DNA of 64,000 nt from Spirochaetia bacterium (GTDB taxonomy: Bacteria; Spirochaetota; Spirochaetia; WTKD01; G963693115): positions 320,001-384,000 of the forward strand of contig CBDDCA010000005.1 in the NCBI GenBank assembly GCA_965226055.1, in the 5' to 3' direction. Numbering within the stretch: position 1 is the first letter of the stretch; the number at the start of each line of letters is the position of its first letter. This document shows, in pieces, positions 425-47,802 of the stretch. The position numbers and the translations under genes were made by a program. A model generated the notes under the pieces. The model saw only the letters and a program-made list of their open reading frames with translations, ran no database searches and was not told the origin of the DNA.

Positions 425-550
425 TACACTGGATTACACAAAAATGCATAGCAAAAAGTGATAATAATGCTACAATAGAGATGCTATGAACAAAATTTGA
501 TCTCTGCTGAAACCTTTACTGTCGCAATTAGTCCTTGAATCCGCACTCTA

Positions 551-17640: not shown

Positions 17641-20600
17641 CTAATTCCTACATTCTGGAGAATTAGCACCCTTGGGAAACTGTAATGGTTTCTTCGCCAT
17701 AGCTGAACCTTGGAAATCAAAAGCATCTACAAGTGTTGAACACAATTTCCATGATGACAAATTTTGATCAAATGCACTAGCCTCACTAAACATACTGGAA
17801 AAATTACTAAGTTTCTTAAAACTCCATTTACTTATATTTTGATTAAAAGCACTTGCTTTCCTAAACATTTGCTGAGTCGTAGTAACACTCTTCACATTCC
17901 AGTTTGCTATGTCTTGATTAAAAGGAGTACCAAAAAACATATTTTGCATACTAGTAACTTTACTCACATCCCAACTTCCTATATCTTGATTAAAAGCAGT
18001 ATTAGCAAACATATTTTGCATATTAGTAACTTCACTCACATCCCAACTTCCTATGTCTTGATTAAAAACAGTAGCTTCCTGAAACATATAACTCATATCA
18101 TTTACGCTACTTGTATTCCACAGTGTTATATTTCCATTAAAAGTACTATCATCCTTGAATAATTCACTCATATCAGTAATAGCACTGATATCTATCATGC
18201 TGAGGTTGGGGCTATTGGTGTTTTGTCTGCTTGCTCCTTTTTCTGCAGTGATAATATCTTGCAGTGCTTTCTTTGTCGTTGGTCTGTAATAAGTAGCTGA
18301 CTGTCCTGATGGTGCTGTTCTTAGCTCTGTCTGTATAACGATAGTGGCTGGCACTTTTTTCTTTGAAGCAGTAAGAGTACACTGTGCTACATCATAGCTA
18401 TATTCAGTAATAGCAGTATCTCGTATATTAGACTTATTTGCTATGCCTGTTATAGTAACTGTTTTGCTATTCTGATCAAATGATACTGCTAGCCCCGTCT
18501 CTTTTTTGATTTTCTCTGCATCTACCTCTAGTATGTTTGCATCACAGGTAAAGGCATTGCCACTGGGTGTGCTTGCTAGTACTCTTGTAGTATTTTGTGC
18601 GAGTGCTGTGCCTACTATTGCTGATACAACTGTGGCATTTCCTATCGCTACTGCTGGCGTGCTGGCAGATACTGCTGTTGCTTCTGCTGATACCTTTGTC
18701 TTTTTGAGGCTGTTTACTGCTACTGCGGTGATATAGTACTTTGTATTCAATCGTAGGTTGCTTATTGTATAGCTTGTTGCTCCTGTTGGTACATCGTCTT
18801 TTTCTGCTCCTTCTTGTGCATCGCTTGCTCCTTGTGCCTGTGTTTTTACTGTTGCTCCATCTATGTTTGTTTTTGAGGCTGCGTAGTATACTATATAGTC
18901 TATTTGATTATCTCTTAAATCAGTTCCTTCTGCTGTCGTTCCTTTTACGGTTGGGGCTGTTATGGTAAGTACTATAGTAGCTCCTTGTGCATTTGCTTGT
19001 ATGGTGGGCTTTCCTGGTGCGGCATAGGCTTCTTTTGCGATAAACTCCTTGCGTAGTCCTGTTGCTTCTTTGCTGGTATCAGTACTGTTTACTGCTTGCA
19101 CTACTATTTCGTAAGTTGTGCCTACTGTCAATCCTGTCAGAGTGCTGTTGGTTGTGTCTGCTGCTATTGCTGTGGAGCTTCCTGCTGCTGTTTTTATTGC
19201 TGCTACGCTTTTTGCACTGCCACTTTTGGCTACTTTGTATACTTTGTACGATACTTGTGCTACTGTTAGGGTGTCTCCTTTGTTTGTTTTGTGGCTTGCA
19301 TTGAGACTGGGGGCTGTCCACGATAGCCTTGCACTCCCTCCTGTTACTCCTCCTACTTGTATGTTGCTTACTTCTGCGGGAGCAGTCGCTTGTGATGCGG
19401 TTGTTACACTTGCCACTGACGATGCTACTTTTTTGCTTGTGTCTGTTTTTACTGCTACTTCTACCACAAAGTGATACTTTGTTGCTCCTTTTATTGCTAC
19501 TACTGGTGCTGTGTCTTCAGACAAACCTAAACTGCTAAGGGCTGATACTGTGTACACTCCGCTACTTGCTGTGCCTATGTTTACTTTTCTGCCTCTTTGT
19601 ACTTCTGCTACTGTAGGTGTTGTGTCTTTCTGTAAGCCGTATACTGTGTATACTAGCTCATCATTGCTTGTTACTGTTGTGCCATCTTTGTTTTTTGCTC
19701 CTGTTATTGTGCTTAACTGTGTGAGTACGAGCTTTATTGTTCCTACTGTGTTTGTTGAGGGTGATACTACCAGCTTACCTGTTAAGGACGATGTAGGGGC
19801 TGTTGCTTTTGAGGTGGGGATAGTGCTTAATTCTAGTTTTTGTATTAGTGCGGGATCTTTACTTTGTGCTTTCTTTGTTGCATAGGGATTGAGGCTGTTT
19901 ATTGCTTCTATGCCTATGGTGTACACTGCTCCCTTTGTTCCTATAAATGTTCCTCGTAAGCTGCTGTTTCCTGCTATCTCTTGTGTTTGTACTCCTCCTA
20001 TTGCTTTTATTTCCGCTATAGTTTTAGTACTCTGGTCTCCTGCTACTATGTATACTTTGTACTGTATTTGTGCCTGTGTGAGTTGTCTGTCATTGGGTGC
20101 TTTATGGTTGCTGGTAATTGTTCCTTTTTGAAACTCGTACTGTACGGTATCGCTTGTTACTGTTGATGTTTCGATAAACAGAGTGAGATTCTCTGGTGCT
20201 GGGGGGACAGTGGATACTGCATCATATACTGCTACTTTGTCAGTAAGCGTTGTTGGGGGACTTACTCTGTTATTCTCTACTGTGAGAAAGGTAAAGCTAT
20301 AGCTTTTTGCATTTGCTTGTGTTGATGATACTTCTACGCCATCTGCTATGCCAAAGCTAATGGTGGTAGCTGTACTTGTTATGCTTTTTTCTGCTACCAA
20401 GTTTGTGCCATCTAACATACGCAGAGTGTAGTACTTATTTGATCCAGGAGCTTGCTTAAAAGTTGCTTTTATTTGTATTGCTCCTGTACTTGTATCAAGT
20501 GTAGGCTTGCTTTGAAAGAGATCTTCTGAGGGAGCTGTGAGTGAGTTGGGGGTGCTTATGTCTTTTATGGCTTGGGTGCTTTTGTTTTCTGAGTAATCAT

Positions 20601-22334
20601 AGGTGAGTATTGTTACGGTATATGTTTTGCCTTGCGTGAGTTCTTCGACAGAGAGTGACTTTGTGGGATAGGGTATTTTCTTCTCGCTCAGTACTGCGGT
20701 GCTTGTATCTTTCTCTGCTATGCTCACGCTGTATTCTTTTATGTCCTTGTTATTAGCTTTTGTTGTATCGGGGGCTGTCCATGTTATCTGTGTGCCTATC
20801 TTTGCTGCTGATACAAAGGGATAGCTTGATTGTATGTTTGTTACTGCATCGGGGGCGGTGCTATCTGCTGATGTGCTGACTGTGGCTGTTGCTTCTGTTC
20901 CTTTGTTGCCTGCACTGTCCATCGATACGACTGCCACTGTATACTCGGTGGTTGCTTTTAGTCCTGTTATTTGTGTGTTGCGTACTGTTCGATCTGTTAT
21001 TGTTACTGTCTTTGTTGCTGTTGTGCTGTCCTTTTCTGTTGCTGTTATAGTCACTCCTGCATAATCTCGTACATCGGGGGCTTGCCAGCCTACTACTAGG
21101 CTTGTTGCTCCTCCTACTGCACTTACATTGGTCGCGGGCTTTGTTGTTTTGTCTGTTGTTGCTTGTTCTTTTGACACTGCAGTGGAGTACTTTCCGTTTT
21201 GAGAAACATACACTTCTACTTTGTACGTAAGCGTGCCATAGAGTTTTGTGAGTGCTATGCCATCTTTTGCTACATACACAGTGGCGTACTCTTGATTGTC
21301 TGCACTTGCAGAACTGAGTTTGGCTGTACTGCTATTGTTCACAGTTGCTTCTGCTACTACTGTATTTGTTGCTTTTGTTGTTACTCGTACTAAGAGGCTT
21401 TTGTCGGTAAAGGCAAAGCTCCCCCACTTAATAAGCAGGCTCTCATCGGCTGGGCTATTGCTTTTATCGTTTGCTGTTACTGTAAGATCTGCCTCTGGCA
21501 GTGGCGTTACTGTTTGTGAAAGCTGGGATGCTTGCACGCCTGTCAATACTGTTGTAGGACTGCTTGTGTTGTCATTTCTGTCTTTGTAGCGTATTTCTAC
21601 ATCATAGGATATGCCTGCAAGCGTGGAGACCTTTGGAAGCGTAACTTCTCCTTGCTGTAGGTTCTGCACGGTAGCTTGCGCAAGCACTATGCCACCAGTC
21701 GTGCTTTTTACCACTATCGTTGCTTCGGCTATGTCTGTCTTGCCTGATGCAAGTCGTTCTTTATCCCATGTTATCTTTATGCCATCCCCCGACTTCTCTA
21801 CTCCTACCTGTGTCAATGTGTCCTGTGGTGCAGTAGTATCTATCAGTGTTGTCACTGAGCGTGTTGTTTTTGGTGATACTTCCGTGTCTTTTTGTGCTTC
21901 TATCTCTACGGTGTAGTCGGTGAGTGCTTGTAAGCCTTTGAGTTGGTACGATTGTCCTTGTTGAAAGAGCGTTTGATATTCTATGGCAGGAACACGCACT
22001 TGTATTGATTGTGCTGGTGCTGTTGAAGTTGCAGTCACTACTACATGCGTGGCATCGCTGGGAGCTTCCCAGCGTAACGAGAGTGTCCCATCATTGCTTG
22101 CTACTTGTATCTGCACATTGGACACTGATGCAAGTGTCGGGGTTACTGGTGTTCCCCCTCCGCCTGATGAGGAACTGCTACTGCCCTCCGAACATCCTAC
22201 GAGTACGAGGGTAGTCATTGCTAGCACTAAAAATAATGCTACTAGAGTTAGGCTTTGCTTATATCGAGAGTGTACCCCCCCCCCCCGATTTTTTTCACGC
22301 TGTATAGCTCATCGTTTTGATAGCTATTATTCAT
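17641..22334 (-). CDS. Large surface lipoprotein A: FN3/Ig-like stalk plus C-terminal BspA/DUF285 LRR; frameshifted at G12 (about 1564 aa when in frame)
   Basis: AAGGAG 22342-22347, ATG 22334, G12, lipobox LVGC, FN3-like motifs ([36 protein letters not shown]) and [20 protein letters not shown] repeats. The track ORF begins at 22227. Confidence 0.88.
22275..22286 (-). repeat. Poly-G tract (G12) in the signal-peptide coding region
   Basis: 12 C on the plus strand; G10 or G13 would join ATG 22334 to the long ORF. Confidence 0.92.
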
Positions 22335-22390
22335 AAAAATACTCCTTACTATTTGTTTTATTGTATATAGTATTATACACAATAGTTATT

Positions 22391-22419
22391 ATAGTACAAA
22401 ATAGTATTTCATGTGTCAA
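22391..22419 (-). promoter_or_regulatory. Sigma-70-type promoter for lipoprotein gene A
   Basis: TTGACA (22414-22419)-N17-TACTAT (22391-22396) on the minus strand. Confidence 0.6.
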
Positions 22420-22424
22420 AGAAC

Positions 22425-22456
22425 ATAGCAAGAAAGGAGCTATCCTTTCTTGCTAT
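22425..22456. terminator. Conserved 3' hairpin of the lipoprotein family
   Basis: ATAGCAAGAAAGGA-GCTA-TCCTTTCTTGCTAT; also at 33281-33315 and 63514-63549. Confidence 0.7.
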
Positions 22457-22477
22457 AGCTCCGTTTCTATAGGTATG

Positions 22478-24070
22478 CTACGAGGAGGCACACGCTGTTG
22501 TATCAGTACTATCCTTTGGATGCTTTGCTGTTTTACTCTCCATAGCTGAACCTTTGAAATCTTCAGCATTAGATTGCAATCTTGTTTTACACAATTTCCA
22601 TGATGATAAATTTTGATCAAATACAGATGCATCTGTAAACGCATAAACAAAATGAATAATATTATTCACATTCCACTTTCCTATATTCTGATTAAAGGAA
22701 CTTGCTCCTCTAAACATATAAGCCATATTAGTAACCTTGCTCACATTCCAATTTCCTATATCTTGATTAAAAGCAGTAGCCTTATCAAACATATGATACA
22801 TACTAGTAACCTTGCTCACATCCCAATTTCCTATATCTTGATTAAAATCACTTATGCTTGTTCCTCTAAACATATGAGCCATAATTTCAACATTGCTTAC
22901 ATCCCAGCTTCCTATGTTTTGATTAAAATCACTTGCTCCATCAAACATAGACTCCATATTGCTTACATTACTGGTATTCCATTGTGTTATATCTCCATTA
23001 AAAGGACCATTATCCCGAAATAAAGCACTCATATCAGTAATAGCACTGGTATCTACCATGTTGAGGTTAGGGCTATAAGTATTTTGTCTCCCTACTTCTT
23101 CTTCTGCCTCAATAATCTCTTGCAATGCTTTCTTTGTTGTTGGTCTATAATAGGTAGTTATTTCTCCTGATGGTGCTGCTCTTAGTCCTGTCCTTATAAT
23201 AATGCTTGCTTTTACTTTTTTACTTGAAGCAGTAATTGTACATTGTACTACATCATAGCTATAGCTTGTAATGGCAGGATCATGTACATTTGATTTGTTT
23301 GCTATACCTGTTACGCTCACTGTCTTGCTACTCTGTTCAAACGATACTATGAGGCCTGTTTCTTCTTTGATTTTCTTGCTATCTGCCTCCAGTATGTTTG
23401 CATCACAGGTAAAGTCAGAGTTACTGCTGAGTACTCTCGTACTATTTATTGCTGGGGTTTTGCCTACTTCTGCTGAAACCTCCGTAGTGTTTCCTATAGA
23501 CACTGTACTTTTTGCTTGCTTGGAACTCCGTTGTGCCTGAAACTCATAGCGTAATCCAGTGGATGCTTTTGTGGTATCGGTACTGTTCACTGCTTGTACG
23601 ACTATCTCGTAGGTCGTTCCGTTTATCAATCCTGTCAAAGTAATGTTTGTTGTTCCTGCTGTTACTGTTTTTGGGCTTTTATCTGCTGTTTTTATTTGTG
23701 CCACTGTCCTCTGTATACTGCCACTCTTAGCAATGCTATATACTTTGTACGATACTTGTGCTACTGTTAGGGTATCCCCTTTGTTTGTTTTATGGCTTGC
23801 ACTGAGGCTGGGAGCTGTCCATGATACTCTCATGCCTGTTGAGGTTACTCCTGTTTGTATGTTTGTTACTTCTGCAGGAGCTGTCGCTAGCGATGTGGTT
23901 ATTTTTCTTGCTACTGATGAGGGACTGCTACTACTCTCTTCACATCCTATCAAAAAGAGGGTAACCACTGCAAACACCCATGCCAGTGTAATACAAGTTA
24001 TCCTGTACATATTATATTGAGAGTATGCTCTCCCAATTTTTTCCATGTTGTGTAGCTCTCTATGTATCAT
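22478..24070 (-). CDS. Medium BspA/DUF285 lipoprotein (one FN3-like domain, Cys-pair linker domain, LRR), 530 aa
   Basis: AAGGAGG upstream of ATG 24070; lipobox LIGC; FN3-like segment similar to those in genes A and B; six Trp-anchored repeats. Confidence 0.88.
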   Translation of the reverse strand: MIHRELHNMEKIGRAYSQYNMYRITCITLAWVFAVVTLFLIGCEESSSSPSSVARKITTSLATAPAEVTNIQTGVTSTGMRVSWTAPSLSASHKTNKGDTLTVAQVSYKVYSIAKSGSIQRTVAQIKTADKSPKTVTAGTTNITLTGLINGTTYEIVVQAVNSTDTTKASTGLRYEFQAQRSSKQAKSTVSIGNTTEVSAEVGKTPAINSTRVLSSNSDFTCDANILEADSKKIKEETGLIVSFEQSSKTVSVTGIANKSNVHDPAITSYSYDVVQCTITASSKKVKASIIIRTGLRAAPSGEITTYYRPTTKKALQEIIEAEEEVGRQNTYSPNLNMVDTSAITDMSALFRDNGPFNGDITQWNTSNVSNMESMFDGASDFNQNIGSWDVSNVEIMAHMFRGTSISDFNQDIGNWDVSKVTSMYHMFDKATAFNQDIGNWNVSKVTNMAYMFRGASSFNQNIGKWNVNNIIHFVYAFTDASVFDQNLSSWKLCKTRLQSNAEDFKGSAMESKTAKHPKDSTDTTACASS

Positions 24071-24229
24071 AAAGGCCTCCTTATTGTTATCTATTATTGT
24101 GCATATCATTATACACAATTATTATACAAAATAGTATTTCCTATATCTATGAAGCAAATGAAAAGAAATGAGCATTTCCTTTTTTGCTATAGATATATTT
24201 CTATACCATACTTCTATACTATGCTACGA

Positions 24230-25339
24230 TTATGTGCATGAACTACCAACCTTTGGGTACTGTGCTGTTTTTCCAGCCATAGCTGAACCTCGAAATACAT
24301 TGAAAGAAAAACTTGGTATACGACACCATTTCCATGATGATAAATCCTGATCAAATTTAGAAGCATTATAGAACATTCTCAAGGATGCATCGACATTTTT
24401 TACATTCCAGTTTCCTATATTCTGATTAAAGGCAATTGCTTCAAGAAACATACCAATCATATCAGTAACTTCTCCTGTATTCCAATTTCCTATGTTTTGA
24501 TTAAAAATACTTGCTCTCCAAAACATACCACCCATATCAGTAACTTCTCCCGTATCCCAATTTCCTATGTTTTGATTAAAAACACTTGCTCCCCAAAACA
24601 TACTGTGCATATTCTCTACATTACTTGTGTTCCACTGTGTTATATCTCCATTAAAAGTACTATCATCCTTAAATAAATTTTTCATATCAGTAATGGCACT
24701 GGTATCTATCATGTTGAGATTGGGGCTATTGGTGTTTTGCCTTCCCACTCCTCTTTCTGCAGTGATAATAGCTTTAAGTGCTGTCTTACCCGTTGGTCTG
24801 TAATAGGTAGGCGATGTCTCTCCTGATGGTGCTGTTCTTAGTCCTGTCCTTATAATAATGCTTGCTTTTACTTTTTTACTTGAAGCAGTAATTGTGCATT
24901 GTACTACATCATAGCTATAGCTTGTAATGGCAGGATCATGTACATTTGATTTGTTTGCTATACCTGTTACGCTCACTGTCTTGCTACTCTGCTCAAACGA
25001 TACTATGAGGCCTGTTTCTTCTCTGATTTTCTTGCTATCTGCTTCCAGTATGTTTGCATCACAGGTAAAGGCAGAGTTACTGCTGAGTACTCTTGTACTA
25101 TTTATTGCTTGTTTATTGCCTACTTCTGCTGAAACTACACTAGCGTTTCCTATAATTAGTGGTTTAGTTGTTTTGCTTGCTACTGATAAGGGACTGCTAC
25201 TGCTCTCTTCACATCCTATCAAAAAGAAGGTAGTCATTGCTAACACCCATGCCAGTGTAATACGAGTTATCCTGTACATATTATATTGAGAGTGTACTCT
25301 CCCAATTTTTTCCATGCTGTGTAGCTCTCTATGTATCAT
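24230..25339 (-). CDS. Short BspA/DUF285 lipoprotein (linker domain plus LRR), 369 aa
   Basis: AAGGAGG RBS, lipobox LIGC, linker domain nearly identical to that of the adjacent gene, five Trp-anchored repeats. Confidence 0.88.
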   Translation of the reverse strand: MIHRELHSMEKIGRVHSQYNMYRITRITLAWVLAMTTFFLIGCEESSSSPLSVASKTTKPLIIGNASVVSAEVGNKQAINSTRVLSSNSAFTCDANILEADSKKIREETGLIVSFEQSSKTVSVTGIANKSNVHDPAITSYSYDVVQCTITASSKKVKASIIIRTGLRTAPSGETSPTYYRPTGKTALKAIITAERGVGRQNTNSPNLNMIDTSAITDMKNLFKDDSTFNGDITQWNTSNVENMHSMFWGASVFNQNIGNWDTGEVTDMGGMFWRASIFNQNIGNWNTGEVTDMIGMFLEAIAFNQNIGNWNVKNVDASLRMFYNASKFDQDLSSWKWCRIPSFSFNVFRGSAMAGKTAQYPKVGSSCT

Positions 25340-25454
25340 AAAGGCCTCCTTATTGTTATCTATTATCGTATACCTATCAGCATAGTTATTGTACTACAAA
25401 TACTATTATTTGTATATATTGTAAACTTAGGGTATATTGTAATATAATGAAAGC

Positions 25455-27101
25455 ATGGGAGTGCTAAAAGTACCAGATTACCTCAATGATGACTCGCTTA
25501 TCAAAACTATTCTCACAAGAAATAAAATAAACTCACACAAAGATTATATTTTTTTTACAAAACTTTGTTCGCTTAACTCTGCACAAATACCATTTGAAAC
25601 TGCCATGCAACTTTCTGAAACAACAGGAGATGAGATAACATTTGTAAGCTATCTTGGTCGCTTTACTGACAAAAAATTGATGGTTATCAGATATGCCTTC
25701 AAGCCAGACGGATTGCGTCCTGATTATATTTTTATAAGTGATGAAAACTCATTTGAATTCACATACGAATATATAAATGAGTCTATCAACCAAGGGCTTT
25801 ACGATAGCAATTATCCAATTCCATCCTTTAAGGAATTGACCTATAATAATATAAATATTCCAAAAAATCATATAGAAAATTTTAACCCCAATCTTCTCCG
25901 TGATAAATTACATGGAAAAACAACTTTTTCCCCTACTATTTATTCTATTCCTATATACAAAGATCTTTTTTACTTTACAGATGAAAATATAGATAAAATT
26001 AGTGATTATGCCATTATAAAACTTCAAAACATATTCAAATCATCGTTTCAAGTAACAAATGAAATTCTTAAATTATTTAAGAATGATACACAAGATTTTA
26101 GAACACACATAACAAGCAAAGAATATGGAGTATGGGCTCCTATCATAAAAAAAATTGACAAAGAGATGCCTGCTTTACGACTAAATAAAAAAGTATCAGA
26201 GAGTTATAATTTTCTTGATTTTATCATCATCTTAAAAAGTACAATAGATACACACCTAACATTTATTGACGAAGTAACACACACAGAAAAAAATATAAAT
26301 GATGCAAGAAAAGAGATTGAAGCATACTTTTTCAATTTACCGTATGGAGTAAGCAAAGAAGAGTTCACTGTATTTTATAATGAATTACTTACAACATATA
26401 ACTTAGAACAAGAAGAAGCAGAAAAAAAGATACTACAATCAATTATAATACAAGCAGGTGATTTTGAACCTAATCAGCAAATACATAGTATTATAGATTT
26501 TGATACATACCTTATTCACTCGTCCATGCTACCAAATTGCATTTCAACCAAATATTTCGCTGTTAATGACATAATATATACCATGTATTTAGATATTATG
26601 AAAAAATTTCTTTTACATAAACTAGCTCCTAAAGAACGTATCTTTTTTGATATAGAAGCACTTGAAAGCTCTGTGAGAAAACATGTACAAGAAATTGATG
26701 CTTTCATGTTTACCATACTTCAGTACCCTGTAGTTATTGCAAATATGATTATCAATAATCATAACAGACGAACACTTAACAACAATCAATTAGAATCCTC
26801 GCAGAGTATAGAAGACAAAAACCTATTTAGTAAAATGTCCTTATCAAAGCAATTATCAACTTTTTTTAACCTTAGAACAAAAAAGCTCCTACAATGGCAC
26901 GAGATATTCAATATCAATATAGTACAGTTAGCAACTACAAGTTTTTCTAAGCTATCGTTTTTCCAAAAATTATATTTATTTATCACCAATAGATATAAAC
27001 TCACTATGAAAAAAATTAAAAAGCTAAATAGTTCAATTGAGAGTGGAAGAGAATCAGCATTACATTTCACACATAAAACACAAAAATTTATACAAAAATA
27101 A
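25455..27101 (+). CDS. Hypothetical protein (548 aa, no recognised motif)
   Basis: Long open frame, TATAAT 6 nt upstream, stop codon abuts the next ATG. Confidence 0.7.
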   Translation: MGVLKVPDYLNDDSLIKTILTRNKINSHKDYIFFTKLCSLNSAQIPFETAMQLSETTGDEITFVSYLGRFTDKKLMVIRYAFKPDGLRPDYIFISDENSFEFTYEYINESINQGLYDSNYPIPSFKELTYNNINIPKNHIENFNPNLLRDKLHGKTTFSPTIYSIPIYKDLFYFTDENIDKISDYAIIKLQNIFKSSFQVTNEILKLFKNDTQDFRTHITSKEYGVWAPIIKKIDKEMPALRLNKKVSESYNFLDFIIILKSTIDTHLTFIDEVTHTEKNINDARKEIEAYFFNLPYGVSKEEFTVFYNELLTTYNLEQEEAEKKILQSIIIQAGDFEPNQQIHSIIDFDTYLIHSSMLPNCISTKYFAVNDIIYTMYLDIMKKFLLHKLAPKERIFFDIEALESSVRKHVQEIDAFMFTILQYPVVIANMIINNHNRRTLNNNQLESSQSIEDKNLFSKMSLSKQLSTFFNLRTKKLLQWHEIFNINIVQLATTSFSKLSFFQKLYLFITNRYKLTMKKIKKLNSSIESGRESALHFTHKTQKFIQK

Positions 27102-28337
27102 ATGTATTCAGATATTTCGCTCGTAATTGTTGGTGCGGGGCTACAAGGCATTACTCTCTATATAAACCTTCCGAAAAAAATACAAAACAGAACACTTATA
27201 ATAGACAAAAACACAGAAGCATTATGTAATTTTTATCGTCAAGCACACAATGTCGGAATGAAATACCTGCGCTCTCCTGCAAGCCATTGCTTAAAAGAAC
27301 CGCTTGTATCCTTGCTATCATATTCTCATGCACACAATATTCACACACAGCATTTTAATGGAAAATATCTCACGCCCTCTCTTACACTGCTTGAGCAGTA
27401 TGTACATCATCTATTAAGAAAAACATCTATTGCTACACAGTTTTTTCAAACAACTCTAAAAAACATAACATATACAAATAATAAAACATGGATACTCGAT
27501 ACTAGCAACGGAACTATTAGCACAAAAAATTGTATTTTAGCATTAGGTATGGGTACAGTAAGCTTACCTGATACCATACAAATAAAAAGTGAACATTCCG
27601 CTTATAACAAAGATACACTGCAATCTATGCTTATCAAAAAACATGTGTTGCATCCACAGTATACTCCCTCTCTTAAAAATACACACAGTCATCGTATAGC
27701 AGTCATAGGGGGAGGAATGAGTGGAACACAAACAGCTCTACGATATACAGATAAAGAGAACACACAGAGAAACAGTGTCTCTCTTATATCAGGAAAACAT
27801 GCTTCTGTCCATTTTTTTGATAGTGATCCAGGATATATTGGTCCTAAATATCGTAATATTTTTTCACAGGAAACAGACTATCGTATACGAAGAAACATCA
27901 TTACAAAAGCAAGAAATATTGGATCTATCAATCCGTATGTACATGAAAAATTAATCACTGCTATCAACAAAAAACAAATTGAACATATAAAAGAATATGC
28001 AATGTCTATCCATGTAAAAAACAATGGACACACACATACTTATATAGTACAGCTATCAAATAATGATGAAAAAGAATATGATGACATTATATTTGCTACT
28101 GGATTTGCAAAAAATGAAATGCCTCATAAATCGTTAGTACAAAACATAGCCACTCAATATGGATGCAAAACAGATGATACCATGTGGCCTATTCCTGAGA
28201 AAAATTTAATGTGGCATCACGGATTATACTTAATGGGAGCTTTAGCCGAACTTGAGCTTGGTCCAGCTGCTCGCAATATTATTGGAGCACATTTAGCGTG
28301 TAGAAATTTTAAGCATTCTTGGGAACAATGGATATAA
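27102..28337 (+). CDS. FAD/NAD(P)-binding oxidoreductase
   Basis: IVGAGLQG and IAVIGGGMSG Rossmann motifs, LRSPASH, IFATGF, LELGPAARNIIGA. Confidence 0.8.
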   Translation: MYSDISLVIVGAGLQGITLYINLPKKIQNRTLIIDKNTEALCNFYRQAHNVGMKYLRSPASHCLKEPLVSLLSYSHAHNIHTQHFNGKYLTPSLTLLEQYVHHLLRKTSIATQFFQTTLKNITYTNNKTWILDTSNGTISTKNCILALGMGTVSLPDTIQIKSEHSAYNKDTLQSMLIKKHVLHPQYTPSLKNTHSHRIAVIGGGMSGTQTALRYTDKENTQRNSVSLISGKHASVHFFDSDPGYIGPKYRNIFSQETDYRIRRNIITKARNIGSINPYVHEKLITAINKKQIEHIKEYAMSIHVKNNGHTHTYIVQLSNNDEKEYDDIIFATGFAKNEMPHKSLVQNIATQYGCKTDDTMWPIPEKNLMWHHGLYLMGALAELELGPAARNIIGAHLACRNFKHSWEQWI

Positions 28338-28352
28338 AAAGCATATACGCAC

Positions 28353-30296
28353 CTACTGTGATAGCAATGCTAAAAATTCATCTTCTGATATGATAGCCAC
28401 TCCCTTCTCTTTTGCATCTTTCATTTTTGATGAAGTACTTGTCTCACTATTGGTAACAAGGTAGCTGAGATCTTCACTTACCGTATTTTTTACTATACCG
28501 CCTTGTTTTTTCACTAAATCTTGTAGCTGCTTACGAGGTGCACTCAAAGTTCCTGTAAAACAAAATGACATATTACTGATTGCGGTTGTTACTACTGTTG
28601 GAGTTTCAATATTCACTATCTGTGCTACATCTATAATCTCTTCTTTTAGGTACTGCATTGCCTCAATAATATTTTTGGCAAGCACCGCTCCTATGTTTTC
28701 TATACTTTCTAGCTGTTCCACTGTTGCAGAAAACATATCATCAATACTATGAAAAATACCTGTACGCACTATACTTTCACTGGATAATAACGCTATGCCA
28801 TCTATCCCTAACGATGCAATAAAATGTGCAAGAGAAACACTTTTTTTACTATGCATAGCATTATACAGTTTTTCTGCAAGAGGCTTTGCTACACGATCCA
28901 ATTTCATAAGAGCATCAACAGAAAGTCGATACAAATCTCCTATTTTATGTACTAACGATTGTTTTAATACCAATGTATGTACAAGAGTATCTCCCCAGTA
29001 CGGTATTTCATGTATCTGTATCCAACGCTTAATACGAAATAAAAGCCTTTTTCTGCATTGTACATTAGGACAAAATACCGTAGTGCCATCACTTTGTATA
29101 GTTGCTCCACATACTTCGCATATCGTGGGTAAGGTAATATCCATAAGCCCTTCAGCATTATGCACTACCTTTTCCACCTTTGGAATAATCTCCCCACGTT
29201 TTGCTACCATAACCTCACTCCCAATTTTTAAGCCTAGCTCTTTTATATGATTAGGATGTACTAGGTTAGCACGTTTCACTATTGTACCAGCAAGTGGTAC
29301 AGGATCTAACAATGCAATAGGAGTGTACAGATGCCCCGAAGCACTCCATTCAACCCCTTTTAGTTTTGTTACTTGCTGTTCAAGGGGAAATTTATACGCA
29401 AGCTGTCTATCTGGCAAGAGGCTACTCATATCTATTTTACTGTACTCACACATCTTTATCACCAAGCCATCAATATCGTAGCCTATGTTTTCCCTTGTTT
29501 GTATTGTTGAAGTTCGTAAGCTATCAATAGATGCCTCATCTTCATACACCCAATACGGAACTACGATAAAGCCTAAAGCCTTCAATAGCTCCAGTTTATC
29601 CTTTTCATTTGATAAAGAATACTGAGTAACAGCTTCCCATTGTTTCTGCTCTTCATCACTAAACCAAATATCATAGCACATACACTGCAGCAACTCTACA
29701 TACACACCATTTTTTTTCTTCATAATGCCATTTGCAGCATTACGACAGTTTGCTTTTGTGTTCTCTGAAGAAGAAAAATGTTTCTTAAATACTTGATGCG
29801 TCATTATCACTTCACAGCGAACTGCACAAGTCATATCATAGGAAAGAGAACGGAGTACTCCTTGCATATTACGAGCATTCATCAAAATATCATCGCCAAT
29901 TTTCCCATCGCCACGAGATACTGCTGCACTGAGTGTTCCTTTCTCATACTGAAGCTCTAAACTTGCACCATCAAGTTTATACTCTACAACATAGTGTGAA
30001 CTTGGATGCTTTGCTACCCATGCCTTAAACTGATGAGAATCAGCTGCCTTTGATAAACTTCCCATTGGCATAATATGCTGTTTTTTAGGAAAAAATTCAC
30101 TGCTATCTTTTCCTACTTCTTTTAGTATCGCGTTGCTAGGATCAAGGCTACGCAATCTGTCCCACAAAGCGTCAAAATCACTATCAGAAATTTCTGAGAC
30201 TCCATTATAATACATCTCTTGATGTTTCTTTATCTGAACAACAAGAGTTTCAATCGTCTGTTGTTTCTCCTTATTTTGCTGTTTTTTGTCTTGCAT
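28353..30296 (-). CDS. ligA: NAD-dependent DNA ligase
   Basis: EYKLDG, SRGDGKIGDD, IDGLVIK, Cys4 zinc finger, HhH motifs and BRCT (FCFTGTL). Confidence 0.96.
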   Translation of the reverse strand: MQDKKQQNKEKQQTIETLVVQIKKHQEMYYNGVSEISDSDFDALWDRLRSLDPSNAILKEVGKDSSEFFPKKQHIMPMGSLSKAADSHQFKAWVAKHPSSHYVVEYKLDGASLELQYEKGTLSAAVSRGDGKIGDDILMNARNMQGVLRSLSYDMTCAVRCEVIMTHQVFKKHFSSSENTKANCRNAANGIMKKKNGVYVELLQCMCYDIWFSDEEQKQWEAVTQYSLSNEKDKLELLKALGFIVVPYWVYEDEASIDSLRTSTIQTRENIGYDIDGLVIKMCEYSKIDMSSLLPDRQLAYKFPLEQQVTKLKGVEWSASGHLYTPIALLDPVPLAGTIVKRANLVHPNHIKELGLKIGSEVMVAKRGEIIPKVEKVVHNAEGLMDITLPTICEVCGATIQSDGTTVFCPNVQCRKRLLFRIKRWIQIHEIPYWGDTLVHTLVLKQSLVHKIGDLYRLSVDALMKLDRVAKPLAEKLYNAMHSKKSVSLAHFIASLGIDGIALLSSESIVRTGIFHSIDDMFSATVEQLESIENIGAVLAKNIIEAMQYLKEEIIDVAQIVNIETPTVVTTAISNMSFCFTGTLSAPRKQLQDLVKKQGGIVKNTVSEDLSYLVTNSETSTSSKMKDAKEKGVAIISEDEFLALLSQ

Positions 30297-31179
30297 AGAG
30301 TGGGTGTATTTTCCTTCTTATATTTTCATAATCTTCCCCTGCATGATAACTAGAACGTACAAGAGGAGCCGAGTCACAATGCAAAAATCCCCGTGAGAGA
30401 GCTTCTTGTTTTAGCTCTTCAAATTCTTTTGGTGTCCAATATTTTTGTACTGGAAGATGTTGTTTTGTAGGCTGTAGATATTGTCCTAAATTGACTATTG
30501 AAACATGATGAGATCTCAGATCATCAAGTGTCTGCACAACTTCTTCTCTCGTCTCACCAAGCCCTAGCATAATACTTGATTTTACAGGAATATCGGGCGA
30601 CTTTGTATAGGAATACCCCAATACCTCAAGAGAACGCTGATAGGAAGAACGTGAACGTACAAGAGGAGTAAGACGTTCTACTGTTTCAACATTATGGCTC
30701 ATAATATTTGGAAAAGACTCAAGTACTACATCTATTGAAGCATATTTTCCCATAAAATCTGAAGTAAGCAGCTCAACGCTACATTGGGGGGCTCTTTTTC
30801 GTATAGCGTGTACTGTATTAGCTACTATTTTTGCTCCCCCATCAGGTAACTCATCTCTGTTTACCATTGTAATCACCACATGAGATAACTGAAGTGTTTT
30901 CACCGATTCTGCTACACGAATAGGCTCTAACTCATCTATACCTGATGGGAGGCCTGTTTTTACAGAACAAAAGCGACAACGACGGGTACAGGTATCCCCT
31001 AAAATCATAAATGTAGCGGTACCATGCTGTCCCCAGCACTCATGAATATTAGGGCAACGTGCTTCTTCACATACTGTATTAAGCCTCTTTCCTTTTACAA
31101 GTGATTTTATAAAATGAAAATTCTTATTAGTACCTAATCCTACTTTTAGCCAATCAGGTTTTTTTTGCAACTGCTTCAC
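30271..31179 (-). CDS. lipA: Lipoyl synthase (likely GTG start at 31179)
   Basis: KKPDWLK, CEEARCPNIHECW, CTRRCRFC, HNVETV, LVRSSYHA. Confidence 0.96.
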   Translation of the reverse strand: MKQLQKKPDWLKVGLGTNKNFHFIKSLVKGKRLNTVCEEARCPNIHECWGQHGTATFMILGDTCTRRCRFCSVKTGLPSGIDELEPIRVAESVKTLQLSHVVITMVNRDELPDGGAKIVANTVHAIRKRAPQCSVELLTSDFMGKYASIDVVLESFPNIMSHNVETVERLTPLVRSRSSYQRSLEVLGYSYTKSPDIPVKSSIMLGLGETREEVVQTLDDLRSHHVSIVNLGQYLQPTKQHLPVQKYWTPKEFEELKQEALSRGFLHCDSAPLVRSSYHAGEDYENIRRKIHPLYARQKTAK

Positions 31180-31204
31180 ATATATATTATAATAGATAAT
31201 TAAG

Positions 31205-32263
31205 ATGTTATACAAAGAACTTTTACCTAAAATTGAAGAAGCTCTTCAAAAGCTCCCTGAGCTTACTAAAAAAGCCTCTGATTCTGATTTAATCAAAAAT
31301 AAAAGTGAATACCGCAAGGTATTACAAGAATATACTCAGCTCAACGAATTACAATCAGTAAATCAAGAATACTTAAAAATAGAACAGGAACTACAAGAAG
31401 CACAACTTATTCAAAATGCTGGCGATGAAGAAATGGAAGCTCTTATTAAAGAGGAAATAATAACACTGGAACAAAAAAAAGAAATGCTTTTTACAAAAAT
31501 CCGTGAACTTGTCATACCCGTCAATCCCCTTGATAGCAAAGGAATTATTATAGAAATTCGTGCAGGCACAGGAGGAGAAGAAGCGGGGTTGTTTGTGGCA
31601 GATCTGTTTAGAATGTATTCACGGCATGCTGAAATTCTTAAATGGAAACTTGAAATTATTGATAGCAATCCTACAGGCATTGGTGGTTACAAAGAGATTG
31701 TATTTTCTATAAATAACTCAAGCTATGGAATATTTAAGTATGAAAGTGGAGTACATCGTGTACAACGTATTCCTAGCACCGAAAGCGGAGGGCGTATACA
31801 TACCTCTGCAGTGACAGTAGCAGTACTTCCAGAAGTAGAAGAAGCCGAAGTTATCATAAAAAACGAAGATTTACGCATAGATGTCTATCGTTCATCAGGT
31901 CCGGGCGGACAAAGTGTAAACACCACCGACTCAGCAGTGCGAATTACCCATCTACCTACAAATATTGTCGTAAGCTGTCAAGACGAGAAAAGTCAACACA
32001 AAAACAAAGAAAAAGCAATGCGCGTGTTACGTGCAAGAATAACAGCCTTTGAAGAAGAAAAGAAACAATCAGAAATTGCAGCAAAACGAAAACAACAAAT
32101 TGGATCAGGAGACAGAAGTGAACGCATACGTACCTATAACTATCCTCAAAACAGAGTTACTGATCATCGTATTAACCTTACACTCTATCAGCTTGATAGA
32201 ATGATGGAAGGAGATATACAAGAATTACTTACAAAGCTAAAAATAGAAATGCAGATAGAATAG
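31205..32263 (+). CDS. prfA: Peptide chain release factor 1
   Basis: [21 protein letters not shown] (PxT motif), [22 protein letters not shown]. Confidence 0.97.
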
Positions 32264-32289
32264 TGTTTCTTATATGTTGGAGCTTGTAG

Positions 32290-33249
32290 TTGTATTTATC
32301 AACACTACAAAAAACAGTATTTACTTGTCTCTATGGCTCACAAGCACTACAGAGAGAATATGCTTTGAGTGAGCTTCCTTATGCAGATTGTATTGCACGC
32401 GAAGTACAAACTATACTGTGTTATGCACTGCACTGTGATATACGATACCTGCTCACTCATACTGATACATACATACACAAAAACAACAAAGAAACTGCAT
32501 TGAATATAAGCAATATACGTGCTACTGGATACCCCCTTGCATATGTATTAGGATACCGTTCTTTTTATGAACATACATTTATGGTAAACGAGCATGTTCT
32601 TATTCCTCGTCCTGAAACAGAATTACTTGTAGATCTATGTCTTATGTTGATACAAGATATGGCCTTACAGAAAAAAATACCTCACTGTCTCTTAGATTGT
32701 GGTACAGGTAGTGGTTGTATAGCACTTTCTCTTGCTGCTGCCCTACAGAAACAACATAATAGTACTTGGTATATTGCCATGAACGATATAGACACACAAG
32801 CGTTAGATGTAGCAAAAAATAATGCACACAACATACTAAAAGCCTCCAATGCCACAGACAATACATTACAGCAATATGATATTTCACCGTACGCATATCA
32901 AGACAGTTTGCTCACAAAAGTGCTACAGAAACAAGAACTAGCGTCTCATCCCCCTGGCATTATTGTAGCCAACCTTCCCTATGTGTGCCACCATGAACTA
33001 CCTTTTTCTTGCATACACAACGAACCAACTACAGCACTCAGTGATCATTCTATAGGGGGAATCAGCACCATACGACAGTTCATTACACAAGCCTCTTTGT
33101 TGGCCCACAACTGCATTATACTGCTTGAGTTTGATCCTCTACAAATTGATACCATTATGGCTTTGCTTGTATACAGTAATTTTACTTACATACAATATCA
33201 TAAAGATATACGCAGTCAACTACGTTTTATGAGTGCAAGAAACTTTTAA
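32290..33249 (+). CDS. prmC: Release-factor glutamine methyltransferase
   Basis: GYPLAYVLG, VLIPRPETELLV, LDCGTGSGCIA, ANLPY; follows prfA. Confidence 0.9.
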   Translation: MYLSTLQKTVFTCLYGSQALQREYALSELPYADCIAREVQTILCYALHCDIRYLLTHTDTYIHKNNKETALNISNIRATGYPLAYVLGYRSFYEHTFMVNEHVLIPRPETELLVDLCLMLIQDMALQKKIPHCLLDCGTGSGCIALSLAAALQKQHNSTWYIAMNDIDTQALDVAKNNAHNILKASNATDNTLQQYDISPYAYQDSLLTKVLQKQELASHPPGIIVANLPYVCHHELPFSCIHNEPTTALSDHSIGGISTIRQFITQASLLAHNCIILLEFDPLQIDTIMALLVYSNFTYIQYHKDIRSQLRFMSARNF

Positions 33250-33280
33250 TACATAGCACTCCTTATTGCTCTCTCTGGTT

Positions 33281-33315
33281 CTATAGCAAGAAAGAGCTAT
33301 CCTTTCTTGCTATAG
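33281..33315. terminator. Conserved 3' hairpin of the lipoprotein family
   Basis: CTATAGCAAGAAAG-AGCTATC-CTTTCTTGCTATAG. Confidence 0.7.
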
Positions 33316-33336
33316 GTATGCATTTCTATGCTACGA

Positions 33337-36300
33337 TTATGTACATGCTGGATTACCTTTAAAAATCTTTGGGTGCTTGTTTGTTTTACTTTCCATAGCT
33401 GAGCCTTTGAACTCAGTAGATGATATTTGACCGTGTGAACACAATTTCCATGATGATAAATCTTGATCAAAATTACTAGTATTTTTAAATATATCAAAAA
33501 GATTTATAACATTCTTTACATTCCATTTTCCTATATTTTGATTAAAAGCACTTGCGCCACTAAACATACCATTCATAATAGTAACTTTGCTCACTTCCCA
33601 GCTTCCTATGTCTTGATTAAAAGCACTTGCGCCATTAAACATATTGTCCATCTCAGTAACTTTGCTCACATCCCAACTTCCTATGTCTTGATTAAAAGCA
33701 GAAGCTCTACCAAACATAATACCCATATTAGTTACTTTACTCACATCCCAACTTCCTATGTCTTGATTAAAAACGCTTGCACGCAAAAACATAGAGCGCA
33801 TATTCTCTACATTACTGGTGTTCCACTGTGTTATGTCTCCATTAAAAGTACTATCGCTACTAAATAAACTAAGCATATCAGTAATAGCACTGGTGTCTAT
33901 CATGTTGAGGTTGGGGCTATTGGTGTTTTGTCTCCCTGCTCCTCTTTCTGCAGTGATAATATCTTGCAGTGCTTTCTTTGTCGTTGGTCTATAATAGCTA
34001 GCTACTTGTCCTGCTAGTTTCACCAGTCCTGTCTCTACATTGATAGTCGCAAGTGCCTTTTGTCCCGAGTATGCTCCTGCAGAAGTAATGGTACACTCCA
34101 CTACCTCGTAGTTATACTCAGTTATAGCAGTATCATGTATGTTTGATTTATTTGCTGTACCTCTTATTGTTACTGTATTGGTATTTTTTGCAAATGTTAC
34201 TGCTAAGCCTGTTTCTTCTTTGAGTGTGCTGTCATCTAATGTGCTTTCATCACAGGTAAAGGTAAGTCCACTAGGACTGATACTGGTAAGTACTCTCGTT
34301 GTATTTTGTGCGAGTGCTGTGCCTACTGTTGCTGATACCTTTGTGGCGTTTCCTATCGCTACTGCTGGGGTGCTGGCAGATACTGCTGTTGCTTCTGCTG
34401 ATACTTTTGTCTTTTTAAGGCTATTTACTGCTACTGCGGTAATATAGTATTTTGTATTCAATCGTAGATTGCTTATTGTATAGCTTGTTGCTCCTGTTGG
34501 CACATCGTCTTTTTCTGCTCCTTCTTGTGCATCGCTTGCTCCTTGTGCCTGTGTTTTTACTGTTGCTCCATCTATGTTTGTTTTTGAGGCTGCATAGTAT
34601 ACTATGTAATCTATTTGATTATCTCTTAAATCAGTTCCTTCTGCTGTCGTTCCTTTTACGGTTGGGGCTGTTATGGTAAGTACTATGGTTGCTCCTTGTG
34701 CATTTGCTTGTATGGTGGGCTTTCCTGGTGCGGCATAGGCTTCTTTTGCTATAAACTCCTTGCGTAGTCCTGTTGCTTCTTTGCTGGTATCGGTGCTATT
34801 TACTGCTTGCACTACTATTTCGTAAGTTGTGCCTACTGTCAATCCTGTCAGAGTGCTGTTGGTTGTGCCTGCTGCTACTGTTGTGGAGCTTCCTGCTGCT
34901 GTTTTTATTGCTGCTACGCTTTTTGCACTGCCACTTTTGGCTACTTTGTATACTTTGTACGATACTTGTGCTACTGTTAGAGTGTCTCCTTTGTTTGTTT
35001 TGTGGCTTGCATTGAGACTGGGAGCTGTCCACGATATTGTTGCATTGCCTCCGTCTACTCCCCCTACTTGTATGTTGCTTACTTCTGCGGGAGCTGTCGC
35101 CTGTGATGCGGTTGTTACAGTTGCCACTGTCGATACTGCTTTTTTGCTTGTGTCTGTTTTTACTGCTACTTCTACCACAAAATGATACTTTGTTGCTCCT
35201 TTTATTGCTACTACTGGTGCTGTTTCACTAGACAAACCTAAACTGGCAAGAGCAGAGACAGTGTATACTCCGCTACTTGCACTGCCTATGTTTACTTTTC
35301 TGCCTCTTTGTACTTCTGCTACTGTTGGTGTTGTGTCTTTCTGTAAGCCATACACTGTGTATACTAGCTCATCATTGCTTGTTACTGTTGTGCCATCTTT
35401 GTTTTTTGCTCCTGTTATTGTGCTTAACTGTGTGAGTACGAGCTTTATTGTTCCTGCTGTGTTTGTTGAGGGTGATACTACTAGCTTGCCTGTTAAGGAC
35501 GATGTAGGGGCTGTTGCTTTTGAGGTGGGGATAGTACTCAGTTCTAGTTTTTGTATCAGTGCAGGGTCCTTGCTTTGTGCTTTCTTTGTTGCATAGGGAT
35601 TGAGGCTGTTTATTGCTTCTATGCCTATGGTGTACACTGCTCCTTTTGTTCCTATAAATGTTCCTCGTAAGCTGCTGTTTCCTGCTATCTCTTGCGTTTG
35701 CACTCCTCCCATTGCTTTTATTTCCGCTATAGTTTTAGTACTCTGGTCTCCTGCTACTATGTATACTTTGTACTGTATTTGTGCTTGTGTGAGTTGTCTG
35801 TCATTGGGGGCTTTGTGCTTACTGGTAATTGTTCCTTTTTGAAATTCGTACTGTACGGTATCGCTTGTTTGTGTTGATGTTTCGATAAACAGAGTGAGAT
35901 TTTCTGGTGCTGGGGGGACAGTGGATACTGCATCATATACTGCTACTTTATCAGTGAGCGTTGTTGGGGGGCTTACTCTGTTATTCTCTACTGTGAGAAA
36001 GGTAAAGCTATAGCTTTTTGCATTTGCTTGCGTTGAGGATACTTCTATGCCATCTGCTATGCCAAAGCTAATGGTGGTTGCTGTGTTTGTTATACTTTTT
36101 TCTGCTATCAAGTTTGTGCCATCTAACATACGCAGAGTGTAGTATCTTCCTATGCCTGGAGCTTGCTTAAATGTTGCTTTTATTTGTATTGCTCCCGTTG
36201 TTGTAACTAGGGCAGGCTTGCTTTGAAAGAGATCTTCTGAGGGAGCTGTGAGTGAGTTGGGGGTGCTTATGTCTTTTGTTGCTTGGGTGCTTTTGTTTTC

Positions 36301-38038: not shown

Positions 38039-38203
38039 AGAAATACTCCTTACTATTTGTTTTATTGTATATAGTATTATACACAATAGTTATTATAGCA
38101 CAAAATAGTATTTCATATATCTGCAAAGAAAATAATAACTTTTGAACTCACGTTATCTATCCAGTATTTACTTAAAATGTACAGAATATACTATACTATA
38201 AAT

Positions 38204-38695
38204 ATGGCTACAATTTCACATCATGGACAAGAAGTACATACAGTAGGCGAACTCCCTTCTGTAGGAACAAAAGCAAAAGATTTTGCCTTATTAGATGAGC
38301 AGCTACAAACTGCTACTTTAGAAACATTTGCTGGTCAGCGAAAAATACTTAACATTTTTCCCAGTATTGATACCTCTACCTGTGCTAGCAGTGTAAAAAC
38401 ATTTGAAGTAAAAATACCTGATAACACAGTAGTGCTTAACATAAGTAGAGATACTCCATTTGCACAAAAACGTTTCTGTCAATCCAATAGTATAGGCAAA
38501 GGCATTTCTTTAAGCGATATGTCACATACATTTGGAAACGATTATGCTCTTACCATCATTTCAGGAAAACTAAAAGATTTCTTATCACGTGCTGTTATTG
38601 TTCTTGATATTGATAATACAGTGCTATATACCGAACAAGTGGCAGAGATTACACAAGAACCAGAGTATGAGAAAGCAATAGAAGTTCTGAAATAA
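38204..38695 (+). CDS. tpx: Thiol peroxidase
   Basis: LNIFPSIDTSTCASSV, ISRDTPFAQKRFC, LSRAVIVLD; ATG 38204. Confidence 0.95.
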   Translation: MATISHHGQEVHTVGELPSVGTKAKDFALLDEQLQTATLETFAGQRKILNIFPSIDTSTCASSVKTFEVKIPDNTVVLNISRDTPFAQKRFCQSNSIGKGISLSDMSHTFGNDYALTIISGKLKDFLSRAVIVLDIDNTVLYTEQVAEITQEPEYEKAIEVLK

Positions 38696-47616: not shown

Positions 47617-47744
47617 AATTTACCTCACTATATGTATTATACATTAAAACAATAATATCAAGTGCAAGGAAATTAGGTATTTGCGGATTCAAGGACTAAA
47701 TGTCGCCAAAAATTCAACTTCAGAGCAGAAGATAAAAATAATAG

Positions 47745-47776: not shown

Positions 47777-47802
47777 TCCATATCTAAGAGTATACTTATG
47801 TT

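Follow-up and report, generated by a model that had tools for sequence, protein, structure and literature searches.

Introduction

In Neisseria, the pilC gene carries a poly-G tract within the region that encodes its signal peptide, and reversible frameshifting at this tract turns the gene on and off (Jonsson et al. 1991, as cited in PMC2193922 and PMC5953494); the tract is listed as G(9-20) and genic (PMC5953494). A similar arrangement is described here for three large lipoprotein genes, gene A, gene B and a giant gene, in a 64 kb window of the genome of an uncultured gut spirochaete (Spirochaetia bacterium; "the window" denotes this whole stretch of DNA), where slipped-strand phase variation at runs of 12, 15 and 14 G probably switches each gene. 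As in pilC, a G/C homopolymer lies within the signal-peptide-coding part of the gene. Unlike pilC, which encodes a pilus-tip adhesin and is present in two copies in a proteobacterium, the spirochaete genome contains some 20 giant lipoprotein genes of the DUF285/FN3 kind, in which an extension of 11–24 residues and then the run precede the charged n-region residues of a long lipoprotein leader.

The PARCEL/DUF285 lipoproteins of Mollicutes use contingency tracts, and the 5′ flanks of further genes for PARCEL lipoproteins contain tracts of a homopolymer or dinucleotide (Roske et al. 2010, PMC2996958). They share with the spirochaetal genes the repeat family (PF03382), the lipoprotein class and the device, but belong to another phylum and are small proteins encoded by few genes, whereas the genes here have 1,500–2,500 codons, FN3 or He_PIG stalks and 15–33 copies with one conserved leader, and their G-run and T-run 5′ modules have been swapped between orthologues. 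In the sortase-dependent pilins of Bifidobacterium breve, a G11–G12 tract parts the open reading frame (ORF) of the Sec signal from the rest of the gene, and a mixture of lengths, enriched in vivo, was measured (PMC9187656). Both are gut bacteria with G-tracts inside surface-protein genes; B. breve, however, is an actinobacterium in which two pilin loci are concerned, and length heterogeneity was measured there, whereas here the run is known from assembly.

The Vlp genes of M. hyorhinis and the contingency genes of M. capricolum, the latter reportedly treated by Wise and co-workers in 2006, are said to provide combinatorial lipoprotein phase variation (cited in PMC11868660 and PMC2996958). The likeness lies in a large set of lipoprotein genes that each carry a separate mutable tract, taken as combinatorial surface display; the tracts of those mycoplasma genes are mostly promoter poly-A or TA repeats. 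In Treponema pallidum tpr, likewise spirochaete surface-protein genes, and in Neisseria porA and opc, promoter poly-G tracts act on transcription, unlike the three runs of the window, which lie 43–48 nucleotides (nt) inside the coding sequence and act on the reading frame. The first-pass annotation of the window had cited Campylobacter and the tpr promoters as precedents, and these give way to the closer cases of pilC, the Mycoplasma DUF285 lipoproteins and the Bifidobacterium pilins. Since these three share it, the frameshifting G-run device is already known, down to the protein family. A search of titles and abstracts found no description of a poly-G phasome in gut spirochaetes.

Three lipoprotein genes with guanine runs in their leaders

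The window (G000:C5:320001-384000) belongs to a metagenome consensus genome of 2.25 Mb in 6 contigs, with 35% G+C. It holds only three G/C runs of at least 7, all on the minus strand and all at the starts of these three genes, which bears out the earlier remark that no comparable runs occur elsewhere; base composition predicts 0.00009 runs of at least 12. Each run sits between an ATG served by AAGGAG and the lipobox of an intact frame of 1,528–2,460 codons, and the off-frame leaders stop 0–8 codons past the run. With G12, G15 and G14, all exceed the G/C homopolymer of about 9 or more within the 5′ coding region that marks a contingency locus, and a change of 1–2 units toggles between the full frame and an early stop while the downstream frame stays intact. 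DUF285 (PF03382) scores above its curated cut-off of 25 bits in all three genes.

Gene A (17641-22334, minus strand) comprises leader, G12 tract, signal peptide, FN3 stalk and a DUF285 leucine-rich-repeat (LRR)-like tip. Its leader (22248-22347, minus) begins with AAGGAG at 22342-22347, 7 nt upstream of the ATG at 22332-22334 (coordinates checked by script), which opens a 28-codon ORF ending at the TAA at 22248-22250. The G12 tract (22275-22286, minus) lies 48 nt past the ATG and 26 open-frame codons ahead of the lipobox Cys codon. Entered one base earlier, the open frame passes through this codon (22192-22194) and meets no stop until 17641, giving 1,528 codons. When the run was altered in silico from n-2 to n+2, the gene became continuous from start to end at G13, and is so also at G10; at the assembled G12 it is out of frame. 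Pfam matches are DUF285 (186 bits, 2e-55) and fn3 (1e-26).

The C-terminal 269 residues of gene A were modelled (predicted local distance difference test, pLDDT, 75.7) and the model compared with 48,161 chains using VIA-align. The best 50 matches are all LRR proteins (Z 9.0-12.3), the closest being Leptospira LIC12234 (Z 12.3, root-mean-square deviation 3.3, 170 aligned), with T. pallidum TpLRR also near the top (Z 11.9); Foldseek returned nothing against the PDB at E<=0.001. As far as the predicted fold goes, the name LRR lipoprotein, given in the first-pass annotation, fits fairly, with nothing other than LRR proteins among those 50 chains. Upstream of gene A, a terminator-like hairpin (22424-22457) is followed by a promoter-like TTGACA-17-TACTAT (22391-22419; the pair spans 22391-22457, minus), and this order suggests a transcription unit of its own. 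One terminator-like site was seen there against 0.0 expected; promoter-like counts, this site included, were no higher than in shuffled sequences.

Gene B (33337-38038, minus), a family-1 paralogue of gene A, has AAGGAG at 38046-38051, 7 nt upstream of its ATG (38036-38038), a G15 tract (37976-37990, minus) 48 nt past the ATG, and a leader stop at 37961-37963. The open frame includes the Cys codon at 37903-37905 and runs without a stop until 33337 (1,543 codons). Its start joins this frame at G14 or G17, and the assembled G15 is out of frame; these lengths differ from those of gene A because one base is missing just past the run (tacactcttgtat against tacactctcgatat). Pfam finds DUF285 (195 bits) and fibronectin type III. 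In both A and B the only in-frame starts past the run are a GTG and an ATG 8 codons ahead of the Cys, which would leave no usable signal peptide.

The giant gene (47803-55226, minus; family 3) has 19 DUF285 stretches, scoring 1,498 bits, and an He_PIG match. AAGGAG at 55233-55238 stands 6 nt upstream of the ATG (55224-55226), and the G14 tract (55170-55183, minus) begins 43 nt past that ATG, in a leader ORF reading MRKNNLFIHSNLYIWGGGG up to a TAA at 55167-55169. The open frame encodes a hydrophobic stretch and lipobox (VMLLLILVLLLLGC, Cys at 55129-55131) and continues until 47803, 2,460 codons in all. Changed in silico, the gene reads through from the AAGGAG-served ATG only at G15 or G12, and the assembled G14 is out of frame. 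In TAATG (55165-55169, minus; MLLLILVLLLLGC...) the leader stop shares bases with an ATG that lies in the frame of the 2,460-codon ORF, and a second in-frame ATG is formed by "AT" and the first G of the run (55183-55185). The G14 state is therefore off only as regards the AAGGAG-served ATG. Termination-reinitiation at TAATG is possible, for which the G-run could act as a Shine-Dalgarno-like site, and with the leader TAA overlapping an in-frame ATG, "off" may here mean "low".

A lipobox Cys with R/K ahead of it, judged by eye, is present in A, B and the giant gene (LLLILVLLLLGC). The Gly codons of the run lie upstream of this predicted processing site, and for that reason the mature lipoprotein would be the same at any in-frame length, in agreement with the earlier proposal that the Gly run falls inside the predicted signal peptide and leaves the mature protein unaffected.

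Gene starts, tracts, leader readings and frames reported in the first-pass annotation all hold on a scripted check; the restoring lengths it gave, G13 (A), G14 (B) and G15 (giant gene), were reproduced by the length changes, and its spacing of 6–7 nt from AAGGAG to each ATG resolves into 7, 7 and 6 nt. Its statement that all three complete large genes carry a run is right for every gene above 1,000 codons, but three more family genes in the window have no G-run. That all are off as assembled is true of the three frames; the giant gene, however, may leak through TAATG, and the joint off state is unremarkable since only 9 of 47 scored family-1 members in two species are in frame.

A genome-wide repertoire of long runs

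The G/C runs of the genome are bimodal in length. There are 105 runs of 6, 19 of 7, four of 8 and one of 9, then none of 10, and beyond this gap one each of 11 and 12, three of 13, 13 of 14, ten of 15 and one each of 16, 18 and 20. The short runs fit base composition (107 expected at 6 or more, 19 at 7 or more), whereas the 31 runs of at least 11 stand against 0.018 expected, about 1,700-fold over chance.

Grouping by flanks took in these 31 runs and the one G9. Three lipoprotein families account for 20 of the 31 long runs, and the scan for runs of at least 9 at lipoprotein 5′ ends that had been proposed for this genome returned 15 family-1, three family-2 and three family-3 leaders. Family 1 (leader as in A and B; 1,530–1,609 residues) has two in-frame members among 14 scored, one further copy at a contig end being unscored; one of the two (C5:412491) yields only 527 codons. 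Family 2 (~2,550 residues) has two of its three members in frame, and family 3, that of the giant gene, one of three, by means of an extra base upstream of its G14. The remaining runs lie at the 5′ ends of hsdS genes (four, C-runs in the coding sense; Pfam Methylase_S 9e-45 in the one copy scanned), in a DNA-methylase gene (one; N6_N4_Mtase 7e-20), between genes (two), at the ends of duplicated short ORFs (two) and elsewhere (two).

The family-1 runs occupy the same place between flanks conserved on both sides, with lengths of 9-16 in the 15 copies of this genome and 11-18 in the 33 of its sister species. Two of 14 scored copies are in frame in the one and 7 of 33 in the other (9 of 47 overall); for family 2 the figures are 2 of 3 and 0 of 2. 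Both out-of-frame classes occur among the family-1 paralogues, alongside in-frame and run-less members. Out-of-frame lipoprotein genes keep frames of 1,553-1,609, 2,551 and 2,473 codons, as long as those of their in-frame paralogues, which excludes old pseudogenes.

The four type I hsdS genes (C1:13372, C3:96327, C4:27722 and C6:662400) carry C14-C20 after codon 10, three in frame and one not, and the DNA-methylase gene at C6:565977 is interrupted by a G15; all are candidates for phase-variable restriction-modification systems. An apparent replication-strand bias of the runs (26 of 32 on the G-rich strand) was put down to gene orientation, because the exceptions include three of the four hsdS genes, with C's on the coding strand.

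The sister species and the exchange of 5′ modules

Family-1 leader DNA was matched in one of 30 relatives searched, the sister genome G001, a single contig of 2.36 Mb from the same genus. A pattern-based scan covered 185,579 species, each by one genome, and gave 40 loci. Of these, 36 lie in the sister genome and are close relatives of gene A; the other four match the DUF285 tip alone, and no close relative was found outside the sister genome. Of the 36 loci, 27 have a G-run of at least 8 just upstream (five of these with a T-run as well), four a T-run only and five neither; the last comprise two badly anchored matches, two interrupted G/A stretches and one other leader.

The sister genome has 43 runs of at least 11 G: 33 in family-1 leaders (7 in frame), two in family 2, four intergenic, one in hsdS and three others. 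One further family-1 member is in frame across its run and shifted again downstream (L097). Among the three others is a G41, by far the longest run (L093, C1 ~1976900), in the 5′ part of a short ORF that reads MHQSAGM and then a Gly run.

The flanking genes of the locus are syntenic in both species and 95-96% identical. The body of gene A aligns at 90% to one gene of the sister genome, with homology ending at window position 22230, within the signal peptide. This positional orthologue (G001:C1:1610597-1610821) has a short leader (MKKVMKKYWLIALVLAIVTLVLVGC) and no G-run, with T15CT5 upstream of its promoter. Because homology breaks within the signal peptide and the orthologue has a T-run module instead, the orthologous locus is read as having swapped its 5′ module, consisting of promoter, leader and switch. 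Gene A's leader has its best DNA match in the sister genome at ~404,800, which was considered as the syntenic locus and rejected, as only the family gene matches there.

The sister genome has a single family gene (G001:C1:1606053-1610821) where window 17641-38038 holds gene A through gene B. Between A and B lie two short family genes and 7.8 kb of housekeeping genes (ligA, lipA, prfA, prmC and others), with the ancestral 3′ flank kept by gene A and the 5′ flank by gene B; by its layout, the region points to a duplication with inserted material.

The giant gene has a separate history. It lies in a 7.7 kb segment (47682-55398), with an 18-nt element, TGCGGATTCAAGGACTAA, at its left edge (47682-47699), which is absent from the syntenic site of the sister genome, where 134 bp stand instead; a 98.7% identical copy with the same G14 is found at C6:843384-851014 of its own genome. 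The 18-nt element has two exact copies in the window (0 expected), at 528-545 (minus) and 47682-47699 (plus). Leaders related to that of the giant gene are run-less in the sister genome (L105, L107, L109) and in its own (L112), for example MRKNNFFIHSKGVILLLILAVLLGC, and a further related leader (L111) has GGGGAGGGG / tatGGGGAGGGGTAc at the homologous place, encoding WGGV, in which one A-to-G change in tatGGGGAGGGGTAc would yield G9. Family 3 in the sister genome is without any run of at least 11. As the relatives of its leader carry GGGGAGGGG or no run, comparison of the leaders supports a separate origin of the giant gene's run from those of A and B, in line with the original view that its leader is unrelated to theirs.

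A flank rule for long runs

Read as G, 31 of the 32 runs of at least 9 in this genome are followed by TA, against 8.5-19% for runs of 4-8. For runs of at least 11 the proportions are 30/31 here and 43/43 in the sister genome (73 of 74 in the two species of the genus), compared with 12/37 in G017, another spirochaete with many runs, 0/9 in G008 and 1/6 in G005. When 75 runs were placed by conservative single-linkage on either flank into 7 flank groups, TA was the 3′ flank, or that of the majority, in 7 of 7. The base preceding a run is always C or T. In the window TA stands at 22273-22274, 37974-37975 and 55168-55169, and interrupted precursors of runs (GGGGAGGGGTA; GGGAGAGTACAC) already have it.

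Selection for a stop codon was considered as the reason for TA and rejected, because its codon phase differs between genes (family 1 reads TAC) and because in hsdS the TA precedes the C-run. No published rule of this kind for the flanks of homopolymer switches came up in a search of titles and abstracts. The TA rule is among the new observations. One tentative account, to which only a low probability is given, holds that the runs are made or kept by a process that reads the flank (such as slippage, repair or nicking that depends on sequence) and are carried by exchangeable 5′ modules among some 40 genes; such modules, G-run leader or T-run promoter, would be dealt by recombination among the giant lipoprotein genes.

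Within the class, G017 (37 runs of at least 11) and G008 seem to have homopolymer repertoires of their own, unrelated to this one. In G008, 8 of 9 runs are followed by C, in two arrays (5 and 3) spaced ~7.8 kb.

Mechanism and alternative explanations

There is good reason to favour slipped-strand phase variation as the switch of the three genes, although the case is drawn from DNA sequence. Replication slippage would alter the run by a base, reversibly and at high rate, bringing the ATG into or out of frame with the export signal. Out-of-frame ribosomes would stop within 0–8 codons of the run, and in-frame lengths would give a prolipoprotein with 4–5 Gly in the n-region of its signal peptide, to be lipidated and cut at the lipobox Cys, with the same mature stalk-and-LRR-tip protein at every "on" length. 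Each gene would switch heritably and independently, and with about 20 such genes per genome, cells would display different subsets. For the giant gene, reinitiation at TAATG may yield some product at G14, giving three levels, not two. The switch as a whole would sit on an exchangeable 5′ module.

Run length was also followed in public data. Six public runs from 3 studies, assembled as Logan contigs, hold window DNA; across window 21900-38400, none of the listed contigs bridges the run of A or that of B. Contigs that bridge the run at 22150-22450 are 41-70 letters long, with exact C12 and C14 in sample X1, and C14, C11 and C13 (depth 2.7) in X2. C11, C12 and C14 are the assembled lengths of three paralogues, the low-depth C13 being extra, and X1 or X2 may be the source sample of the assembly.

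Several points qualify this reading or count against it. The 17+19-nt flanks of the bridging contigs recur unchanged in the G11 (C6:438057) and G14 (C6:632382) paralogues and, being common to three loci, do not assign the contigs to one paralogue; exact patterns for the family-1 leader with at least 9 G found no stretch in the metagenome contigs of the Joint Genome Institute (JGI). Homopolymers of 12–15 G are error-prone on every platform, which makes the on/off state of a single locus uncertain. Most of the long runs (23 of 31) measure 14 or 15, and G14 is shared by all three family-3 copies though their flanks have diverged by 1.6-4.3%; tight clustering of this kind is odd for very fast change, or may reflect mutational equilibrium or gene conversion. 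The excess of out-of-frame family-1 members is weak (9 of 47 against one third, binomial p = 0.044, with copies that are non-independent). Finally, MutS1 (752 bits) and MutL (419 bits) were found in the genome, without stops. Mismatch repair lowers slippage in short runs; long runs still escape it. Campylobacter and Helicobacter, unlike this organism, are not known to have this mismatch repair, and its presence may be why the runs here are long.

The alternative that survives best, though it is unlikely, is that the run serves mainly for non-heritable recoding or dimming, with RNA polymerase slippage or reinitiation producing a fixed low in-frame fraction from any length; an "off" length in the assembly would on this view stand for low expression, with DNA-level switching playing a secondary part. 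The RNA-DNA hybrid is about 9 bp. Runs longer than this hybrid are the condition for transcriptional slippage on A/T runs (PMC1088944), and the runs here exceed its length. Dimming would also suit the TAATG of the giant gene's leader, for which the G-run may act as a Shine-Dalgarno-like site, and the preponderance of out-of-frame family members (38 of 47); a 2026 preprint reports weak expression from the frameshifted "off" states of a repeat switch in Mycoplasma bovis (10.64898/2026.04.01.715767). Programmed recoding, however, keeps a single frame relation, and no one conserved out-of-frame arrangement is found: 9 of 47 members are in frame, both off classes occur and some members are run-less. 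Nor have A and B an in-frame start past the run that leaves a usable signal peptide.

An assembly artefact, in which the runs are real, their lengths miscalled and the true lengths fixed in frame without switching, appears improbable. The genome is a metagenome-assembled consensus, homopolymers of 12–15 are the weak point of all platforms, and the lengths pile up at 14–15, one or two below the in-frame 16. Yet lengths from 9 to 20 are called (41 in the sister genome), without a ceiling, and the spread is the same in two species whose genomes were assembled independently, with in-frame members at 13, 16 and 17. Public contigs reproduce C11, C12 and C14, with the proviso that one of the two samples is possibly the source of the assembly, and a little over thirty housekeeping proteins in the window align with their Pfam models over the full length despite 76 A/T runs of at least 7. 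Even with some lengths wrong by one, contingency loci are recognised by just such a bimodal excess of 11–20-nt runs where genes start. Decay of an over-expanded family, with out-of-frame genes as pseudogenes and runs as mutational scars, is scarcely credible: out-of-frame members are in the majority, a second frameshift occurs in L097 and the in-frame gene at C5:412491 is short, but 15 out-of-frame genes keep an uninterrupted 1,553-2,551 codons in a 35% G+C genome and the run stands at the same place in 48 genes, with flanks conserved on both sides.

Other family genes in the window

Two short DUF285 genes stand in tandem upstream of gene A. The first (22478-24070, minus; FN3 and DUF285) has a family-1-type leader, MIHRELHNMEKIGRAYSQYN...LIGC, with GGGAGAGCA in place of the G-run and hence no run to slip; the second (24230-25339, minus; DUF285) has the same run-less leader (MIHRELHSMEKIGRVHSQYN...), with GGGAGAGCA at the homologous place. 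Their state may precede the switch, or may be what is left of one that decayed and became locked. Contigs of other samples (X5, X6) join paralogous tip regions (window 22453-24655 and 33317-33799, for example 22846 to 33799), possibly because tips have recombined in other strains, or because repeats tangled the assembly graph.

At the window edge lies the 5′ end of a fourth large family-1 gene (1-298, minus; ATG at 298), whose leader has no G-run. A T21 run (404-424, minus; A21 on the plus strand) stands ~40 nt upstream of its TGcTATAAT and is the family's putative alternative, promoter-side homopolymer module; with the T15CT5 of gene A's orthologue, it is an instance of the promoter type of module, which does occur on other family members. 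The copy of the 18-nt element at 528-545 is ~100 nt upstream of this T21 promoter. The genome has 29 A/T runs of 13–30, most in the promoter context gaaaatt-A(n)-tacactgg (opposite strand), which resembles the flanks of the coding G-runs, gaaaatc-G(n)-tacactc.

Conclusions

The device itself being known, what is new here is the swap of G-run leader and T-run promoter at the orthologous locus of gene A, together with the TA rule. The scale of the repertoire is considerable: in this genome G/C runs occur in some 20 giant genes for LRR-tipped lipoproteins, in four hsdS genes and in one DNA-methylase gene, and the sister species has 43 runs. For annotators, genes of 4.6–7.4 kb of this kind are not to be called pseudogenes, and the on/off state of a consensus assembly is not to be trusted. 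Further work might be worthwhile on this scale, on the exchange of coding G-run and promoter T-run at one orthologous locus, and on the TA rule of long runs. The repertoire adds an uncultured, mismatch-repair-proficient lineage of gut spirochaetes to the bacteria with a large phasome.

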